Shown: positions 2,868 through 63,885, counted from the whole stretch's first letter. The stretch: DNA of 63,885 bases, filler included, from Collodictyon triciliatum (GCA_043381765.1; 46 parts of 46 records of this genome joined end to end with filler, not necessarily neighbours in it); one strand, 5' to 3'. Notes: generated from the letters alone by a model not told the origin. A program made the numbers and translations.

Positions 2868-3240
2868 TTAACAATCATTTAGTTGATGGTTAGAATGGTA
2901 ACTGACAGTCGAGGCCATAAAGTTATGGTTATATATTGCTTTAAAATATAAGTGTGTCCAAAATACTATGAAATATTGCAAACCCCTTTGAATCGAATAA
3001 AGGGAGGGGTAATGAAATATGGTGAACCTGCAATAACTTTATGGTCTCGTTTGCCGGAGTTTGCTCTATGCTCCAATCGTCATAACGACCTTCCAGTCCA
3101 AATATCCCTTGTCTGGCATAATTAAGAGCCACTGCGATTCCTAAGCCCTGCGGAGATGTTTGTGCATCCTTTAAATAAAATTACCCACAGTAGTTCGATA
3201 TTCGGACGAGAATAATGAGATAAAACGATGCACTTTTTAC

Positions 3241-3301
<61 letters not shown>

Positions 3302-6978: not shown

Positions 6979-8223
6979 ATGCTTTCCAAGACGCACATTC
7001 AGAACAGACAACAAGAACGAATTCTCAAAAGACTCCAAGAAAAATCCAACCAGCAGGTCTCCCACATTATCCAAAGACTTAAAATTAATAAAAAAAAAAA
7101 TTAATAGATAAATCATGATTGATAATTAAATTTGTGAGTAGTAACATTCAAAAAAATTAAAATTAAATAATAAAATACCTTAGCCAAGCTTCCATAAGCA
7201 TCTTTGTAGTTCGCCGCTCCGCTTGCGTTGATTGCTCTCCAGCATGTAAAGAACTCGTAGCGATAGCGACCACGGAGCATGATGCTGATAACCTATGAAA
7301 ATTTTCAAAATTAATCAGTGAAAATCATTTCATTATGTATAGAATACTCGAATAAAAATATAAAATAAGAAATTACATGTTTTTGCTTCATGTATTCCAC
7401 AAGCAAGTCAAAAGAACTGCCCTTCAGAAGCTGGTAGCAAATCTCAGCAGCAAGCTCCTCATCTGCGTCAGCATCCTCAAAATACTGGCCAAACAGCCAT
7501 TTTCCGTATTTTTCGTGGGTTTTTTCCATCTCTTTCATTTCAGAGAAGTAGACCTTTTTAGTGGTCTCTAGTAGCAGCTGATGGAAGTACATGTATCTAT
7601 GATATACAATAATTAGGTTTATATCCAAATAAAATTGTACCGAAAGCACCGATTAACGACCGAAAAATTAGGGAAATAACACCAACCTTCCATTGCGGAC
7701 AAAGAGCGACTCAATGAGGGTAAAGAAAAAGGATTTCCTATTTGGATGTATAAAGGATAAGTTAAAAACAAGAAAAGAAAAGAGAAAGGGTTAAACCTAT
7801 TCATTCTATTAAAATTCAATAGTAAGTAAACCATTCAGCAAGCTCGAATCCTGTGCCAATCGCATCTTTCATGTACTTGTCCAGGTCACCTTCACTCAGG
7901 CCAATGCGAGAGACAAAGAGAACCTTCATCGAGAGGGAGACATACTCGACCTTCATTGCCTCTTTTCCATCAGACGTGGCGACTGTACAATTGAGATAAG
8001 TATTCAACAAAAATTTCGATTATAATTTGCATTTTTTTTGTGAAATATGAAACCAATACTCACTTTTCCTGTTAAACTTCAGTTGCCAGCGTTTGATAAT
8101 GAGAGTGTAAAGGTCAATGACACCGTTGGTTGAAAGCAAAACAAACAGTTCATCATCAAGCTTCTCATAGACTCCAAAGACCCTGACCTCATCCAGAATA
8201 ATGCGGAGATAGAGCGGATGGCC
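6979..8223 (-). CDS. NPHP3/TEP1-like NACHT-TPR protein, winged-helix/helical region, spliced (paralog 2)
   Basis: GHPLYLRIILDEVRVFGVYEKLDDEL, SLSMKVLFVSRIGLSEGDL, MYFHQLLLET, YGKWLFGQY; closely similar to 37633-38918. Confidence 0.85.
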
Positions 8224-8442
8224 TATAGAATATTAGATAATGAATAACTAATCAATCCTTATATGATTTAATANNNNNNNNNNNNNNNNNNNNNNNNNNN
8301 NNNNNNNNNNNNNNNNNTTAATTAATTAANNNNNNNNNNNNNNNNNNNNNNNNNNNNNNNNNNNNNNNNNNNNTGACAAGGTAATTAATATTTTAATTAA
8401 AAATAAATAAAATATAAAATACATTCCGTTTTGTGAAATATA

Positions 8443-11760: not shown

Positions 11761-11859
11761 CGGGGCTTCTTCGCTGAGTGGCTTATAATAGGCCTTGCTT
11801 GTGCTTTTAACATTCCTGAAAGCGCAGAACATGAGTTAATTAACTCTGTGTTTTTTTTT

Positions 11860-11885
11860 CTTTGAATCGAATAAAGGGAAAAAAA
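11860..11885 (+). mobile_element. Micro-retroposon copy 2
   Basis: CTTTGAATCGAATAAAGGG + A7; degenerate flanks CTGTGTTTTT / CTGTCTTTTT. Confidence 0.65.
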
Positions 11886-12595
11886 CTGTCTTTTTCTGAA
11901 GACGACCGAGAGGGGTAGGAGGAGGGATGTGCCCTTTTTTCTTTCTATTTTTCCCATCAAAGCCCTTGAATATTTTCACCCAAGAGTTAGAGCAACACCG
12001 CCAACGAAAAAAGTAACAACTACTTGCAGGAGCATGAGAGTTGTATTTCGCTCCGCAGTCTATTTTTTTCCCCACTCGTATGCGTCGGTGGTGTACGTTT
12101 CATTTGTTTGATACTACGGCAACAATGAGGAAGTCTAGTACCAACTCCTTTGTCTGATAAATAACTCAATTCTGATTAAATGAAGCTGAGTCGCAGAGTT
12201 TTTATAGTGCTTCGGTTGGCCGTATCAAAGGTATCCCGCTTGGCGATTCTTTTTTTTTTTGGGCAAATATAGTAAAACCAGAAAGGAACCGATAAGAGCG
12301 GGCTCGAAGGAAGAAAAATGTAAGGTGTGGTCTATACCCAGATTTGGAAGAATAGAATGCCATCTTATTCCAAAATAGAACGCCATCTCATCTCACAGCT
12401 TAGAGCTATTAGATAAAGTTGCGGCGTGCTACATTCCATCATTATGCATACATAGTGTNNNNNNNNNNNNNNNNNNNNNNNNNNNNNNNNNNNNNNNNNN
12501 NNTTAATTAATTAANNNNNNNNNNNNNNNNNNNNNNNNNNNNNNNNNNNNNNNNNNNNCTTATGTCGAATTATAAGTATTTGGTATAATGATTAC

Positions 12596-18138: not shown

Positions 18139-19432
18139 GCGCTAGTAGCGGCTCGGGCGTGTTTGGTGGTGGTGATGGGATTCTGCTCTCACAGAGCTGT
18201 GCCTTGAAGTTCGGGCATATGCGATGGATAAGATGCCACATTCCACGCTGCCAAAATCCTTTCGGATGGGTAAGCATATCTGTCCACCATCTCATCGTGA
18301 GTGATGTCCATGCAATGCCAGGCGTTATGAGTCCCAGTCCTCCCTCCGTGGGTGGCTTAGAGAGCGTCTTGATTTTATATTTTTGATTATTCGTAGTGAT
18401 GAAGTTGCGGCAGATGTCTTCCAGCTCCTTCAGCCTTTGGGGATTCAGCAAAGTGCCTTTCATGTTGTAGATAAGGGTCGACAGCATCACTTGGTTCCAC
18501 AACCTTACTTTCCCCACGTCCGAGAGATGAAAGTTGCTCCACACTGATATTTTCGACTTGATGTCCTCAACCAGGCTTGTCCATTTGTTATCTGATTGTG
18601 GACCGAATATGATACCAAGATACTTGAGTGGATGTGATGGTGGCTTCCACACAATTTTTCCTGGAAACACAAGTCCGTCCTGAAACCCGAAAAGAATCCC
18701 ATCTGTCTTGTCGTAGTTGATTTTCCCGCCGACAGCTCGTGTGTATTCTTGCACGCATTTGTTGGCGAGTGTGGCGCCTTCGGGAGACCGCAAGATGAAT
18801 GCTATGTTGTCTGCATATTGAAGTATCAGGTTGTTGCGACTTTTTTTCGTTTCGGAAATGGTTTGTAAGGCAGTCAGCGACAAAGTAGAAGAGCAGTGGT
18901 GCAAATGGGCAGCCTTGATACATCCCGCTCTGTCTTTGAATTGCATCCGTAGGTCCGTGTGCCGTGAGTACCCTCGCTGTTGCATTGTCGTGCAATTTCT
19001 TGATAAGGCTGGTGAATACAGTACAGAAGCCTCTTTTGTGTAGGATGGTTTCCAGTGCTTCGTGGTTCACATAGTCGTATGCTTTCTCCAGGTCGTAGAA
19101 AATCATAGCGCGGGGCGTCCCGCTTACTTGATATTCCATGTACTCTTTGTTGACAAGCCAGATGTTTGTGTCGATGTTCCTTCCGTTCATGAAACCAATC
19201 TGCTCTTTGGATATGAGTTTGTCAGCGAAGGGTGATATGCGATTTCTGAGTAGCGTCGTAAATATCTTATAGTCGTTATTCAACAGTGATATTGGCCGCC
19301 AGTCTGCAAGGTTGCTCGAGTTTCCTTTCTTTGGTATCAGCCGCACCGTGGCCTCTGTAAATCCTTGCGGTAGGTCGCCACCAGACATGATTCCATTCAG
19401 AAAAGCCACTAAGGATGCCTTGACCTCATTAA
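18139..19432 (-). mobile_element. L1/Tx1-clade non-LTR retrotransposon reverse transcriptase, frameshifted
   Basis: LIPKKG..WRPISLLNNDYKIF, QIGFMNGRNI, DLEKAYD, QGCPFAPLLF, then after a frameshift near 18850 QYADN, INYDKT, KYLGI, GGLGL. Confidence 0.95.
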
Positions 19433-19624
19433 NNNNNNNNNNNNNNNNNNNNNNNNNNNNNNNNNNNNNNNNNNNNTTAATTAATTAANNNNNNNNNNNN
19501 NNNNNNNNNNNNNNNNNNNNNNNNNNNNNNNNTGGATTTTTTTATAAAAATAAAAGATAGATAGAAAGAGATGAATAGGAATGTAAGAAAAGATAAACTG
19601 GGTGGTGAAATAGAAAGATAGCAA

Positions 19625-23480: not shown

Positions 23481-23559
23481 ATTTGTGAGTGCAACAAAAA
23501 TCGGAGACTTGAACCGTGTTGACGGGGATAGTGTGAGGTTTTTTTTTTTGTTCTTTTTT

Positions 23560-23615
<56 letters not shown>

Positions 23616-27894: not shown

Positions 27895-28690
27895 AGGAGT
27901 TACAGAAACACTCCAAACAACTGCTGTGTGTCCAATCAATGTGCGAATAAAAGCTCCATCAGAAAGATTCCAGATTTTGATTGTACTATCGTAACTCCCA
28001 GATACAACTTTTGTACCATCGGGAGAGACAGCAACACTTACAACAGCATTAGAATGACCTGTTAATGTGCGAATCAAAGCCCCGTCTGAAAGATTCCATA
28101 TTTTAACAGTATGATCGTGGCTTCCAGAAATTATTTTTGTATCATCAGGAGTGGCAGCAACAGTTTCAACCCAATTTGTATGTCCAATTAATGTGTGTAT
28201 CAAAGCTCCATCAGAAAGATTCCAGACTCTTATAGAACTCATTAATCCAGTGACTATTTTTGATCCATCGGGCATGAGAACTATGCTAGTAGCTCCACTT
28301 TCTAGCCCACCGATAGTGAGAATCAAAGCTCCATCAGAAAGATTCCAGATTTTGATTGTATTATCCCAACTCCCAGATACTATTTTTAACCCATCAGGAG
28401 TGACAGTAACACATCTGACAATATTTGTATGACCAAACAATGTGCGAATCAAAGCTCCATCAGAAATGCTCCAAATTTTAATTGTGCTATCATGACTCCC
28501 AGAAACTATTTTTGAACTATCAGGGGGTACAGCAACATTATTAACCCAATCAGTATGACCAGTCAATGTGCGGATAAGATACTCCTGCCCTTGAACTTGA
28601 AAAATATGGCTGTGGGATGCTAACCCTAAAACGGGTTTTGTCAGTGTGTTTCGTATTGTAAATTTCGGCCATTTTGTGTGAATATTATTC
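27895..28690 (-). CDS. WD40-repeat protein with highly similar 42-aa repeats, single long exon
   Basis: At least 5.5 repeats of GALIRTLxGHxxxVxxVxVxPDGxKIVSGSxDxTIKIWNLSD. Confidence 0.93.
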
Positions 28691-29328: not shown

Positions 29329-29872
29329 GAGTCTTCCAAGGGTCTTGCAGCTTGTTCCTGATTGTCCAGTCGACGAAAGGTTTGTCATTGCGTGTCGAAG
29401 AACCCAGACCACTCAGTGCTGGCATCAAGAAGAGCGTTGAAGTCTCCACAGATGATGACATGTTTCGCAGACTCCATCTCCTTAGAGGGAAGCTCATACT
29501 CGTGTATTCTAGTATTTGAAACTGCTGTTTGGAGCGACATGTATGTCGTCATTATGCGAGTGTCAGCCCCATCGATTTGGATATCGAGACTTATGCAGCA
29601 CCCAGGAATCATCTCTCTGAAGCGAGGATTGATTTTGGCTATCCATTTCTTGCATAAAATCCCTACACCTGCGTGTCTGTGATGATTATCGTCACGGGAC
29701 CACATTTGTGAATCTTTCCATACTTCATTGTTTGTTAGATTGTCAGGGCTGGGCCATGTTTCTTGGAGGCAGATGATATCTGCGTGAGAGAAAAGAGCAG
29801 TGTTTAGGGCCTCTTTTCTTTTTGTGGGGTCGTTAATCCCCTAATGTTCCACGACAGAACGTTAAAATGCAT
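29325..29872 (-). mobile_element. L1/Tx1 ORF2 APE endonuclease, frameshifted
   Basis: VLSWNIRG, DIICLQETW, AGVGIL, VIICGDFNALL, LQDPWKTLNP in shifting frames; ends in (GA)n. Confidence 0.9.
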
Positions 29873-36143: not shown

Positions 36144-36767
36144 NNNNNNNNNNNNNNNNNNNNNNNNNNNNNNNNNNNNNNNNNNNNTTAATTAATTAAN
36201 NNNNNNNNNNNNNNNNNNNNNNNNNNNNNNNNNNNNNNNNNNNAAAAAAAAAAAGAAAAAAAAAAAAAAAAAAAAAAAAAAAGACAAAAGACAAAAAAAA
36301 CAGAAAAAACAGAAAAAAAACGCACGATAAAAAAAAACACAAGATAAAAAACCAAAACAAGGGAATGGCTGTAAAAAAAAAAAGATTATGTAGAGTATTT
36401 CGAGCCAGGCGATTGAGTCTGAAAAAAAGTGCACAGATGTATGGAAAAGACACATATTCTTGGGGCAGGATAGCAACAATCAATCAACTGCACACCTATG
36501 AATGTTTAAAAAAAACATCAACAAAAAAAATAGAAAAAACCAAAGAACCTAAAAAAAAAGGAAGTTTATTGTAACTTTAGCAAAAAGGTTAATCACTATG
36601 ACGAAAACTTATAGCACTTAAAGAAAAGTGAAATAAAAATAAGTTGGCTGAATTAAAACGAACGAGTGATGAGTTAGAAATTTACTTTTTCAAAAAATAT
36701 GCGGGACAATATGAATACTTAAATAGTTTTGGATAGCGTTATGGTTGAATCTAAATTACGGGGTAGG

Positions 36768-36791
36768 CTTTGAATCGAATAAAGGAAAAAA
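36768..36791 (+). mobile_element. Micro-retroposon copy 3 with perfect 15-bp TSD
   Basis: AAATTACGGGGTAGG (36753-36767) - CTTTGAATCGAATAAAGGAAAAAA - AAATTACGGGGTAGG (36792-36806). Confidence 0.9.
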
Positions 36792-37632
36792 AAATTACGG
36801 GGTAGGAGGGGATCATAAGGAGACATGACAATCTTTTCTTAAAAAAGCACTCCTCAACGAGGATACCGAAGCCAGTTTTGCTTACGCAATCTCTAACACA
36901 TTTCAATTAAAAATATGTTTATGAGTTAAATATACTTTCGGAGTTCAAGTCCAAGAGTTTGTTTTATGTGGGATGAAATATAATTCAATTAGTAATTTCT
37001 TACAAGCAGAAAAGGTTCCATCGTAATACTAACAGCTGATACGTTATGGAAATCAGATATTGCACAGTTGGTTGCGAAAGAAAACCTGTTTTCAAAAGCG
37101 AAGAAAAACTCGGAGTCGATAAATCTCTTCAAAAATCAGCATATGTCACAAAATAGTAAAATCAGATGATACAGAGTATTGTATCAATGAAATTTTTATA
37201 CATAATGTATTTATATAAAAGAAAATGTAAAAAGAGAAACTATAAAATGTAACAAAAGGACAGAAATGTTACATTTCCAGGATTTGTTGAGAAGTTTTCC
37301 TAGAATCAAACTTTTTCACTATTTCTTGGAATAATTCAGGGGTGAATGTGGGATTGCTCTGCATAGCCTCTCGAATTCGTACCTGTGACCAGTTAAGAAT
37401 TGAGCTTAAGGGAAAATCCACTATTTAATCTAGAAAATTAAAAATTAAAAATTAAAAATTAAAAATTAAAAATTAAAAATTAAAAATTAAAAATTAAAAA
37501 TTAAAAATTAAAAATTAAAAATTAAAAATTAANNNNNNNNNNNNNNNNNNNNNNNNNNNNNNNNNNNNNNNNNNNNTTAATTAATTAANNNNNNNNNNNN
37601 NNNNNNNNNNNNNNNNNNNNNNNNNNNNNNNN

Positions 37633-38918
37633 AAACGAACTGCCCTTCAGAAGCTGGTAGCACATCTCAGCAGCAAGCTCCTCATCCACTTCAGCAGCCT
37701 CAGAATACTGGCCAAACAGCCATTTTCCGTATTTTTCGTGGGTTTTTTCCATCTCTTTCTTTTCGGAAAAGTAAAACTTTTCGGTGGTCTCCAACAGCAG
37801 CTGGTGGAAGTACATGTATCTATGATAAACAATATTAGTTTTTATACCAAAATAAAACTATACCCAAAAAGCACCGATTAACGAACGAAAGGATTTAAAA
37901 AAAGACTAACCTTCCATTGCGGACGAAAAGCGACTCGATGAGGGTAAAGAAGAAGGACTTCCTATTTGAATGAATAAAAAGATTAGATAAATAAAAGAAT
38001 AAAAGAAAAAAGGCAAACCTATTAATTCTATTAAAATTTAGGAGTAAGCAAACCATCCAGCAAGCTCGAATCCTGTGCCAATCGCATCTTTCATGTACTT
38101 GTCCAGGTCACCTTCACTCAGGCCAATGCGAGAGACAAATAGAACCTTCATCGAGAGAGAGACATACTCGACCTTCATTGTCTCCTTTCCATCAGATGAG
38201 GAAACTGTTATAAAATCAATCAAAAAAATGGCAATTATAATTCTTTTTTTTTTTTTGAAAAATATGAAACCAATACTCACCTTCTCTGTCAAACTTCAGT
38301 TGCCAGCGCTTAATAATATGAGTGTAAAGCTCAATAACACCATCCGTAGAAAGGAGAGTATTCAGTTCTTCATCGAGCTTCTCATAGACACCAAAGACCC
38401 TGACCTCATCCAGAATTATGCGGAGATAGAGCGGATGGCCTAGAATAAAAAATATCAGATAAGAAAACTGAATCATTCCATGAAAATATTAATCTAATAT
38501 ATACATTTTAATAATGTCTCACCAGTATCTTCAAAGTCATCCAGAATCATTCCAACTTGCTTTTCGTTCAGGGTCTTGTCATAACGAATGAGGAATGTTT
38601 CGACACCATCCTTAATTTCGCCCTTGGTCAACTTGGCGACGGGAATCGGCTCCAGTCCACTTTGCTTGGCAGACTTGTAACAAATACATTTAGTAGAGTT
38701 CACTCAAATCATTTTATGCAGAATACAAGAATATCCCATAATATAAATAAATATTGAATACCGTGCAAGATTCATGGGTATGAATGGTCGACACAACCAT
38801 CGCAACATTAGGCGGTGTTTCCTTGGGCAACCAGGTCAGCAGATGCGGAGCTGGCGTTCCTTGCGACGGGTGGATTTGGTTGATGGCATCGATGAGGAAG
38901 ACAAACTTCTCGTCCCTA
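37633..38918 (-). CDS. NPHP3/TEP1-like NACHT-TPR protein, Walker B to helical region, spliced (paralog 3)
   Basis: FVFLIDAINQI..PHLLTWLPKETPPNVAMVVST, FLIRYDKTLNEKQV, GHPLYLRIILDEVRVFG. Confidence 0.88.
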
Positions 38919-39021: not shown

Positions 39022-39095
<74 letters not shown>

Positions 39096-39189
39096 TTTTT
39101 TTGTCTTTTGTTTACGAAATGTATATGTTGACACGTGGTTGCTTTTGTTTATCACAGCGATCGATGCCAAAGGGTCGGCAGATCCATTT

Positions 39190-43188: not shown

Positions 43189-44198
43189 TTTAGCTTCTTC
43201 AGCTCTTTTAGCTTCTTCAGCTCTTTTAGCTTCTTCAGCTCTTTTAGCTTCTTCAGCTCTTTTAGCTTCTTCAGCTCTTTTAGCTTCTTCAGCTTTTTTA
43301 GCTTCTTCAGCTCTTTTAGCTTCTTCAGCTGCGGTGTCGACCTAGGGTTATGTTAGTTGTGTGCTGTGTTGTGTATGTGGGGGTTGGGGGTGGATGTGTG
43401 CTTACGGGGTCGTAGAGCTGCAGAGCGCGGATGTGTTTATTGACTGAGTATTCTGTGTTAGTCCAACAGGGGAGATTTGAGATGCCACGCGGGGCTCTCT
43501 TTATGTTTACTTTTCCACTCCCATCTACCATGTCAAGTTTCTTCAGATTTGTGAGCGCTGTGATTTGTGCTGGAAGCTCCTCCATCTGTGTGTATCGTTG
43601 TCAGTCATTATCTTTTAAACATAAATAATAATATAATATATGAATAAAAACATACCGGATTGTTGAATACATAAAGTTCTGTGAGACCAGTCAAACACGA
43701 TATTTGTGCAGGTAGTGATGACAGCTGATTGACACTAACACCCAATACTTTCAGACGAGTCAAACACGATATTTGTGCAGGTAATGATGACAGCTGATTG
43801 TCATTAACATAAAGTTCTATGAGACCAGTCAAACACGATATTTGTGCAGGTAGTGATGACAGCTGATTGCCAGCAACAGAAAGATATGTGAGACCAGTCA
43901 AACACGATATTTGTGCAGGTAGCGATGACAGCTTATTGTTATAAACACCAAGTATACTGAGACCAGTCAAACACGATATTTGTGCAGGTAGTGATGACAG
44001 CTTATTGTTCCAAAGACGCAATTCTTTCAGACCAGTCAACAAAAAAACACCAGGCGGCACAGATGACAGATTCTTGTCATAGAGACTCAGATATGTGGAG
44101 CTTTTCAGAGTGGCAATATTAGCAATTGACCAATTAGAGAGTATCAGGACTTCTACCATAAGCGCATCCACTTGGGCAGGTGTGAGACAGTCGGACAT
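43189..44198 (-). CDS. Variable LRR protein A: cap, six 23-aa LRR modules, terminal LRR/cap exon, (AEEAKR)n stalk
   Basis: Exons 44198-43656, 43585-43406, 43341-43189; constant LSSLPAQISCLTGL with variable xxLxVxxN. Confidence 0.92.
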
Positions 44199-44576
44199 CT
44201 GGACAGATTCCGACTGTATATATGGGTAGACTGGCTGGGTGTCAATAAAATACACATCATTTATTTGTTTTATGAGTGAACTTAACAATCACACAGGACA
44301 GAACTACTCGAGTCAGGACGGTAGAGTTGTGCACTTGGAGATCAGAAAGTACTTTGAATAAGAAAAAAAAGTAAGGATTTCGACAAGACGAGGTTAAATA
44401 TCCCGCAAAGGCCGGCGGATTTTTCCGAGAAGACGACTTGTGCAGAACTTGTGTGCTTGTGCTTCCTTGGAAATTTNNNNNNNNNNNNNNNNNNNNNNNN
44501 NNNNNNNNNNNNNNNNNNNNTTAATTAATTAANNNNNNNNNNNNNNNNNNNNNNNNNNNNNNNNNNNNNNNNNNNN

Positions 44577-44864: not shown

Positions 44865-45190
44865 CCACTCATTCCTGATAATAGGCTGGATGACATCATA
44901 AAAATCTCTTTCCTCAACAGCTTCCTTCGCCACCTGCACGTTCTCCACTACTCAGACCCTGTGAAAAGAGACATGCGGAAAGAGGCCAAGATAGATATTC
45001 AACCTCGCTTTGTCTCTCCCATGCAAGCACAAGACCCAGACTACAGACCAAACCGCAGGATTCAATTGCTCATTACCGACTACTTCTCCGCCACCCGGCC
45101 ACCTAGTAGCGTCCATGCAAACGACGGCTAGCAAATCAAGACCAAAACTTCCACCATCCTGCACAAAATTGAACGGAAGAATAAAATAGA
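44865..45190 (+). mobile_element. Repeat family C, 3' end, copy 2, with open C-terminal frame
   Basis: Open frame PLIPDNRLDDIIKISFLNSFLRHL...RPNRRIQLLITDYFSATRPP...DG-stop, then AATAAA; matches 33630-33790. Confidence 0.65.
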
Positions 45191-62969: not shown

Positions 62970-63368
62970 CGTCTTGGATGATTCGCCTTTATGCCGGGCT
63001 GTAGGGGTTATGTGCCGCCAGCTTAGCAATTTGTGGTGGGCTTTGGTATGCCATCGCGACGAAAAAGTCCAGAATTTGCTTCTGTATCGTATGGTTCAAG
63101 TTTGTTGCCAGCATGCTCCCCCCTTTTTGTAACCGAACATAATGCTAATACCATATATTTTTTTTGGGAATAATTTGGTCCAGTTCTAGAAGGTTGGGAA
63201 CAGAAATAGAAGATTCGAGAAGGCCTTGAGAAGGTGCTGGAAAATGTTTTTCATCTATTACTTTGGCTAAAATAAAGCGATTTCCTTCTATGTGTGATTT
63301 CTTTGCTTCGTCTGTTGATGATGTACGTTCTATTTGTAATTTTGATTTGGATGGCACGGATAAAAGAT

Positions 63369-63394
63369 TTTTTTTCCCTTTATTCGATTCAAAG
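63369..63394 (-). mobile_element. Micro-retroposon copy 7 with 16-bp TSD (1 mismatch)
   Basis: GGCACGGATAAAAGAT (63353-63368) - TTTTTTTCCCTTTATTCGATTCAAAG - GGCACCGATAAAAGAT (63395-63410). Confidence 0.9.
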
Positions 63395-63422
63395 GGCACC
63401 GATAAAAGATGAAAGAAGAAAG

Positions 63423-63885
63423 GCTTCTGCATCATCAAACAGGTTCACGAAGGCCACTATCAGAGAAATCTCACTCAAAGAAGACGGCTCGTACATCACA
63501 ACGCCAGGCTCCACTGTATTCCGCACACAAGATGCACAGCCAACCACAGCTGTCCTGAACAACAAAGGAAAATGGCGCTCACGCAGACCAATCTCATACA
63601 ACATCCCGTCGCCATTTTTTTTCCGACTCAAGAACGAACGCTCATCTAACGGTGCGCAGTCTACTCAGTTCTCGATGGCTATGGCCTACTCCAAATTCTC
63701 TCGATACAAAATATCGCCGCCGACACCCTACAAAAAGTCAAAACATCAACGATGGGGAGAAACATTGGGCATCACCCACGCCCCGCTCACCGCAAGCTGG
63801 AGACAAGCACGAACCCCGCAAGTCCTTCCAAATCACCGCTCTCTAATGCTTAATATCACCAATAGGGAGCTATGGATAGGCACAC
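63423..63885 (+). mobile_element. LINE ORF2 C-terminal (pre-zinc-knuckle) fragment, open frame
   Basis: 154 stop-free codons including FSMAMAYSKF..RWGETLGI...W...LPNHRSLMLNITNRELWIG, resembling the zf-RVT lead-in; absent from the ORF track. Confidence 0.65.

Follow-up and report, generated by a model that had tools for sequence, protein, structure and literature searches.

The sequence at 36753-36806 raises the question of how an insertion of so few nucleotides could arise repeatedly with the same beginning. It is laid out as AAATTACGGGGTAGG, CTTTGAATCGAATAAAGG, A-run, AAATTACGGGGTAGG; that is, a core of 18 nt and a short tail of A are enclosed by two copies of a 15-nt direct repeat. We refer to the core with its tail as the stub, and ask from which kind of element it derives, which machinery inserted it, and what sets its 5′ end.

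The DNA analyzed (the window) is a stretch of 63,885 bases, 59,279 of which are called. It comprises 46 unrelated contigs of ~1285-1296 bp each (one broken by 106 N), ordered by falling length and joined by spacers of the form N44-TTAATTAATTAA-N44, the first of which is found at 1297-1396 and the others at each ~1390 bases. Features that cross a spacer carry no meaning. A 59-kb sample of small contigs such as this one is probably enriched in repeats. Hallmarks of eukaryotic DNA in the window include pieces of LINEs, WD40 and LRR genes, and a duplicated gene with introns of ~90 nt.

Several of these neighboring features deserve a brief description. The duplicated gene is present as two paralogous copies on the minus strand (7410-8273 and 37633-38500), which are 85% identical over 863 nt; its introns of ~90 nt are AT-rich, and its exons are much more conserved than its introns. 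The peptides encoded by these exons (e.g. GHPLYLRIILDEVRVFG) have an appearance that we take to be NACHT/NTPase-like. On the minus strand at 27895-28689, an open frame of 265 aa encodes near-identical WD40 repeats; its best match is at 48%, and the named matches are mostly cyanobacterial. Judging by these match levels, the host lineage seems to be poorly sampled. An LRR-encoding repeat or gene family is found in inverted orientation at 43189-44476 and 57059-58344, with 86-89% identity over ~530 nt in two blocks. Many contigs start or end in very long runs of A or T or in A-rich microsatellites, among them (AAAAAG)n, (AAAAC)n, and (GAGGATAAAAAAAA)n (e.g. 3242-3296, 36244-36330, 61216-61350, 39022-39110, and 23549-23615); this pattern suggests breakage of the assembly at retroposon tails and an abundance of microsatellites derived from A-tails.

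Copies of the stub and their target-site duplications

Seven copies of the core, CTTTGAATCGAATAAAGG(G) followed by an A-rich tail, and a degenerate eighth were found in the called bases, which corresponds to a density of about one copy per 8.5 kb. A search with TTGAATCGAATARAG, allowing up to two mismatches, gave eight matches against 0.70 expected, a number reached in none of 100 shuffles; these figures rule out chance as the source of the motif. Seven of the matches are exact (2988+, 11862+, 36770+, 51274-, 61388+, 61726+, and 63378-) and one has two mismatches (56564+). In agreement with a preliminary description of this DNA, the seven copies occupy both strands and are spread over six contigs, one of which (c46) carries two. 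AATAAA is present in the core, as had also been reported. Six of the seven copies start with CTTTG, the exception being the copy at 61724, which starts with CCTTG (CCTTG...AAAGA). The tail is A-rich and 7-13 nt long in six of the seven, the tail of the copy at 2986 being G-rich instead. Variants with GG and with GGG both occur among young copies with clean target-site duplications (TSDs).

TSDs were scored as ungapped direct repeats that end no more than 3 nt from the first base of the core and restart past the tail. Significant TSDs of 15-17 bp, with scores of 9.5-17.5, flank four of the seven copies (36768, 51290, 63394, and 2986). Scores of at least 9 were obtained at 0 of 1809 non-repetitive random sites and at 9.5% of all 4000 random sites, the latter because of tandem repeats. 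In the first copy (36753..36806, plus strand), a TSD at 36753-36767 precedes the core CTTTGAATCGAATAAAGG at 36768-36785 and the A-run at 36786-36794, the last three A of which are common to the downstream TSD at 36792-36806; the order of the parts is the one originally described, and the two repeats agree at 15/15 positions (score 15). The second copy (51246..51307, minus strand) has its TSDs at 51291-51307 and 51246-51262, agreeing at 17/17 positions (19/20 when extended), with the core at 51273-51290 and the tail AAAAGAAAAAAA between them. In the third (63353..63410, minus strand), TSDs at 63395-63410 and 63353-63368 (15/16) enclose a core with GGG (63376-63394) and a tail of A8. These three are the copies for which clean TSDs had been claimed (36768, 51263-51290, and 63369-63394), and a separate, stricter TSD test recovered the identical three.

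The third copy is situated directly upstream of a LINE ORF2 fragment in the same contig (c47), in the opposite orientation. Together with one TSD it amounts to 42 nt (14 codons) and is in frame with an open frame at 63276-63884 that runs into the ORF2 fragment. This copy may be nested inside the older LINE copy of c47.

Decayed repeats had been ascribed to three more copies, which is clear for one of them. This older copy (2968..3028, plus strand) consists of a TSD at 2968-2984, an extra C, a core with GGG at 2986-3004, the tail AGGGGTA, and a TSD at 3012-3028 (14/17, score 9.5). The copy at 11846..11897 (plus strand), with a core including GGG at 11860-11878 and a tail of A7, is borderline, as the score of 7 for its possible decayed TSD (CTGTGTTTTTTT / CTGTCTTTTTCT, 10/12) is met by 2.3% of the non-repetitive and 14.6% of all null sites. 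The copy at 61709..61763 (plus strand; CCTTGAATCGAATAAAG at 61724-61740, tail AAAGAAAAACAAAA) is ambiguous, since its sole direct repeat is the 9-nt ACAAAATAT at 61709-61717 and 61755-61763. The upstream ACAAAATAT ends 6 nt before the core as placed here, or 7 nt before TTGAATCG, and the TCACAC ahead of the core (61718-61723) may mean that the copy is a little longer or that a 16-bp TSD has decayed. Direct-repeat scoring detected no TSD for the copy at 61386..61415 (plus strand), which has a core with one substitution (AATAGAGGG) and the tail AAAAATAAAAA, so that two or three of the seven are devoid of TSDs. The degenerate eighth match (56562..56582, plus strand) reads CTTTAAATTGAATAAAGG followed by AAA, with two transitions relative to the motif, and is not flanked by a TSD; it may be a decayed copy or a chance match, of which ~0.7 are expected at up to two mismatches.

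The G-rich tail of the copy at 2986 (GGAGGGGTA / GGGAGGGGTA at 3004-3011) stands next to an intact core. An A-to-G change, through editing or mixed tailing, or else fast decay of the tail, is a possible cause.

The junctions between TSD and core define where the unit begins. In three copies (36768, 51290, and 63394), the TSD ends immediately before the C of CTTTG, and these exact junctions in the clean copies indicate a discrete 5′ end of the unit. A single extra C separates TSD and core in the copy at 2986, and overall the 5′ end deviates by 1-2 nt in two copies. The claim that all copies start at one base thus holds for the CTTTG of six copies, with the CCTTG of the copy at 61724 as the exception, and, as far as the end is set by TSDs, it holds exactly in three copies and to within 1-2 nt in two. 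The first base of all four significant TSDs is an A preceded by T or C, as had been noticed next to the tail in the clean copies, which fits priming of the A-tail on a T-rich nicked strand. With TSDs of variable length (15-17 bp) and short A-run tails, the copies bear the signature of target-primed reverse transcription (TPRT) by a LINE of the APE type that primes on poly(A); TPRT had been attributed to them at the outset.

When all copies were compared, their flanks had nothing in common beyond chance-level 9- to 12-mers. Pairwise BLAST of the copy-bearing contigs matched the 20-30-nt unit only, low-complexity A/T-rich repeats aside, and none of the seven motif-bearing copies in the window had upstream sequence in common with another. 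A similarity of ~12-15 nt upstream of the copies at 2986 and 61724 was put down to A-rich TSD starts. The sequence GGGGTAGGAGG occurs at 11912-11922 and 36799-36809 and nowhere else in the window (expectation with one mismatch allowed, 0.16), and both sites are located within ~50 nt downstream of a stub (11860 and 36768) in the same orientation. As a candidate target or neighboring motif, it was judged to be near chance; by our estimate, ~3.2 kb of flanks would yield about one shared 11-mer. ATTTGAATGAATAAAAAG, seen in c6 and c28, was dismissed as a chance similarity in an intron of the duplicated gene.

A probable origin of the core at a LINE 3′ end

Public metagenome, genome, and viral contigs were scanned with TTGAATCGAATAAAGGRAAAA, which contains the core and the start of the tail. 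The metagenome contigs gave four matches (L001-L004), of which L002 alone is relevant; L001, L003, and L004 are without the CT prefix and the tail and look like chance. Three bacterial matches among the genome contigs were also judged to be chance. The scan of the viral contigs gave no match, and a search of the same contigs for relatives of the L002 and c47 ORFs found none.

L002 is a metagenome contig of 1157 bp from another data set and carries the full CTTTGAATCGAATAAAGG followed by A10. Its minus strand contains an open frame of 202 aa with a zf-RVT domain (PF13966, E 1.5e-7), followed by a frameshift and a 133-aa frame up to a stop, and then a 93-nt 3′UTR whose terminal 18 nt are identical to the core. 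After the core and the A10 comes the flank, where GC drops from 0.56 to 0.28 (AT-rich). The LINE ORF2 C-terminal fragment of c47 (63477..63884, plus strand), which runs off the contig end, matches L002 at 62% on the amino acid level over 136 aa and at 72% on the nucleotide level over 355 nt. As judged from its sequence, L002 carries the 3′ end of a LINE copy that has decayed, and the terminal 18 nt of that LINE would be the stub. An adapter or assembly artefact, another potential source of a recurrent motif, would neither have TSDs nor recur at the end of a LINE in a separate data set.

A second LINE 3′ end is found in the window itself (c34; 44883..45187, plus strand), with an ORF2 C-terminus at 44883-45127, a stop at 45128-45130, and a 3′UTR end, TTGAACGGAAGAATAAAAT, at 45169-45187. 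The ORF2 ends of c34 and L002 share 36% identity over the last 75 aa (E 3e-12). A relaxed version of the motif (TTGAA-N0-2-CG-N0-6-AATAAA) had seven matches in the window, six of which are stubs, and the one at 45169 is the only match outside a stub (0.075 expected; maximum of 2 in 200 shuffles). This site is in sense orientation, 38 nt past the ORF2 stop. Since the motif at 45169 stands behind an ORF2 homologous to that of L002, this genome contains a diverged sister LINE whose 3′ terminus, TTGAACGGAAGAATAAAAT, is related to the core. The preliminary description had proposed looking for longer elements that end in the motif, and two came to light: the LINE of L002, whose 3′UTR ends in the core, and the LINE of c34, which ends in its relative.

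The link to a LINE consists of L002, which was retrieved by the core search, and of one diverged LINE end in the window. The core of L002 could conceivably be a stub that was inserted by chance behind a LINE; L002 has no TSD and no A-run ahead of the core. Among the 59 kb of called sequence in the window, no LINE was seen to end in exactly this core.

LINE remnants had been reported in the window, and the domain searches bear this out: matches to RVT_1 (18588-19484, minus strand) and Exo_endo_phos (29385-29840, minus strand) add to the two ORF2 C-termini (63477-63884+ and 44883-45127+). Near-length relatives of the RT are metagenome proteins with 63-76% identity, and full-length relatives of the window RT, at 31-38% identity, carry PF03372+PF00078+PF13966 (Exo_endo_phos + RVT_1 + zf-RVT). 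The traits of an L1-superfamily partner are thus found, with Exo_endo_phos, RVT_1, and zf-RVT (in L002) on separate fragments, alongside the A-tail and the variable TSDs. A search of the Atlas gave generic RVT_1 clusters only. By its domain layout, the partner LINE would belong to the L1 superfamily, be it to L1, Tx1, or another clade.

Taking the copies and the LINE ends together, we consider it probable that the repeat represents the last 18-19 nt of the 3′UTR of an L1-superfamily LINE plus its A-tail, inserted by the machinery of that LINE via TPRT. A different origin, which had been put forward as a discrete small RNA of the SINE type, would be a separate gene giving rise to an RNA of ~18-20 nt that is tailed and retroposed, its sequence being merely common to, or donated to, the LINE tail. 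The fixed 5′ end and the finding that 7/7 exact-motif copies in the window are stubs would suit such a gene, and so would a 3′ tail in common with a LINE, this being how SINE/LINE partners behave; Kajikawa and Okada are said to have described the sharing of a 3′ tail by such partners in 2002. However, 18 nt are too short for an internal Pol III promoter, and the window contains neither a tRNA-like head (no gene found by ARAGORN) nor an Rfam match at gathering score. Moreover, no copy has shared upstream sequence that would mark it as a source locus, and the sole longer context found is a LINE 3′UTR. The GG and GGG variants, both found in young copies with clean TSDs, likewise argue against this origin and are more easily reconciled with a LINE source of several copies than with one master gene. 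An independent gene for the stub is, in our assessment, improbable.

Compared with the traits that characterize SINEs, the stub has the 3′ end common to a partner LINE, the tail, and the TSDs (the core equals the end of the L002 UTR, and TSDs are present in 4/7 copies). A small-RNA head (tRNA, 7SL, or 5S) with an internal Pol III promoter is absent, the TSD-bounded unit being 18-19 nt plus the tail. The name “micro-SINE” is fair for the behavior of the stub, not for its family membership.

Matching of public sequencing runs to 36244-37532 gave 24 runs, each with just 0.04 of the words, and there was no RNA run among the matches listed. Four of the 24 were aligned, and their cover is nearly confined to A-rich low-complexity stretches; these runs yielded neither an empty site nor a sign of expression. 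One Logan contig, from run X5, overlies the stub and its tail (36760-36795) and continues into more A and then into unrelated sequence; it may represent a stub copy in another data set.

Possible causes of the fixed 5′ end

The steps of insertion can be read directly from the anatomy of the copies. A bottom-strand nick made by the endonuclease at a T|A-type site would expose a T-rich 3′ end, which would prime on the A-tail of the template; RT would then copy 18-19 nt, and joining of the cDNA at another nick, 15-17 bp from the first, would create the TSD. What appears unusual is that nearly all insertions with this tail stop at one base, so that the stub would act as a discrete, non-autonomous element that lacks its own promoter.

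Short copies may also result from routine 5′ truncation, which is generally known to be the rule for L1-type elements, and the sister LINE in c34, at ~300 bp, looks like an ordinary truncated copy. The scattered truncation points that characterize such copies are not what was found for the stub: three independent insertions end at one base and two more within 1-2 nt, while one is maybe 6-7 nt longer. In addition, none of the seven motif-bearing copies (0/7) reaches into UTR-like sequence. We give very little credence to routine truncation, or to a chance or artefact motif, as the explanation of the stub.

A programmed early stop would account for the constancy differently. Here, a full-length or long LINE RNA would be the template, and RT would always pause once it is 18-19 nt into the 3′UTR and jump to the upstream target end, implying that most TPRT events of this subfamily abort at one base. 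The anatomy predicted is the same as that of the explanation we rank highest. Short tails (7-13 nt, and A10 in L002) suggest that RT is positioned at the boundary between UTR and A-tail, and pausing at a specific position would work without RNA processing. Yet no roadblock is predicted. The preliminary description had drawn the core as a stem-loop, CTTTG-AATCGAA-TAAAG, and had considered a LINE 3′ stem-loop at whose base RT stops. The assignment to a LINE 3′ end is supported by L002 and c34, whereas the stem-loop and the structural stop are not: the 5-bp hairpin can be drawn and was rejected on energy, ViennaRNA giving an MFE of 0 kcal/mol for 3/3 copies with tails and all 200 shuffles folding at least as well. 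The 3′UTR of L002 folds no better than its shuffles (z = 0.57), and a search of L002 against Rfam for ribozymes or other structures gave four matches with E values of 0.12-7.9, all far below gathering scores. As there is no stable structure or ribozyme upstream in L002, a structural roadblock is not evident, and a stop at the base of a structure is further disfavored because RT would meet the 3′ side of the hairpin first. The three exact junctions also show no microhomology, their TSDs ending in G, T, and C versus the LINE base A that precedes the core. Finally, a LINE that aborts nearly always after 18 nt would hardly propagate. Overall, a sequence-specific early stop or template jump at that position seems less likely than not, yet nearly as likely as the explanation that we rank highest.

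The explanation we prefer, tentatively and at somewhat less than even confidence, is that the template reaches the target already as a 3′-terminal RNA fragment with a defined 5′ end. Such a fragment could be made by a cut at ...ACA|CUUUG, or by 5′-to-3′ trimming that stops at the margin of a LINE protein on the tag and A-tail, and RT would simply run off the end of the fragment. We favor a pre-formed fragment because the junctions are exact and have neither an extra G nor microhomology, because no RT-blocking structure is predicted, and because a LINE could scarcely survive if its RT nearly always aborted after 18 nt. That none of the three exact 5′ junctions has an extra G also argues against a capped primary transcript as the template.

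A further variant, which we consider unlikely, is that the stub is a self-sustaining micro-retroposon that needs no promoter. A host transcript bearing a stub would be polyadenylated at the AAUAAA and A-run of the stub and bound there by the LINE protein, and 5′-to-3′ trimming to the protein footprint would remake an RNP of 18-19 nt plus tail, ready for reinsertion. If this were true, 18 nt would be the minimal RNA tag needed by an L1-type RT.

Significance and comparison with known retroposons

If the pattern holds genome-wide, the stub would be the shortest discrete retroposon unit known to us, approximately five times shorter than the shortest SINEs in the literature searched, and L1-type machinery would be able to mass-produce insertions of its terminal tag alone. 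Such a unit would provide a natural handle on the minimal RNA that an L1-superfamily RT recognizes beyond the A-tail, as well as on what sets LINE 5′ ends, namely RNA processing or protection versus RT pausing or template jumping. Insertions of 25-30 bp escape standard repeat maskers, and at the density seen here they would contribute a considerable number of unannotated AATAAA signals and A-runs within genes.

The core motif was found in no paper of the literature searched. Titles and abstracts yielded no “micro-”, “mini-”, or “nano-SINE” of this kind, and nothing comparable under truncation hotspots or tail-only LINE copies. What appears to be new here is the identification of the core with the 3′ end of a LINE, hence a stub that would be moved by L1-type TPRT and not as an independent small-RNA SINE.

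Known systems resemble the stub in different respects. For L1-type elements, 5′ truncation is the rule, and the truncation points are scattered over kilobases. The resulting “dead on arrival” copies of the L1 superfamily are collinear with the LINE 3′ end, as the stub is with that of L002, and, like the stub, are non-coding and have an A-tail, a T|A-type nick site, and a variable TSD (15-17 bp in the stub). Whereas their truncation points are scattered, the stub begins at one base in three copies and within 1-2 nt of it in two more; it is also just 18-19 nt long and is the only form in which this tail occurs in the window (7/7).

SINEs that share the tail of a partner LINE (tRNA-, 7SL-, or 5S-derived) are, like the stub, non-autonomous elements of high copy number with a 3′ end identical to that of a LINE, the RT of which mobilizes them in trans or in cis. 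The eel pair UnaSINE1/UnaL2 is reportedly a case of a SINE with the 3′ tail of its partner LINE. The stub differs from such SINEs in that a small-RNA head, an internal promoter, and a body are all missing.

Trypanosomatid NARTc and SIDER are internally deleted, non-autonomous LINE derivatives. Similarly, R2 SIDEs are presented in PMC3414825 as non-autonomous derivatives of a LINE in which the 3′ sequence required for TPRT is retained. Derivatives of this kind share with the stub their LINE origin and the retention of 3′ sequence for TPRT; they keep both ends and measure hundreds of base pairs, whereas the stub has 18-19 nt of the 3′ end only.

A precise 5′ end of the template that is set at the RNA level, as a preformed fragment would require, has precedents in the R2 5′ ribozyme and in twister variants of Schistosoma non-LTR elements, according to PMC3414825 and PMC8501958. 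In these ribozyme-processed elements, it is the 5′ end of the whole element that is defined, whereas in the stub it would be that of the terminal tag only, and no ribozyme was detected at its boundary. In size, the nearest point of reference is Platy-1, which at ~100 bp is given as the shortest known primate SINE in PMC4864456, and the stub is approximately five times shorter.
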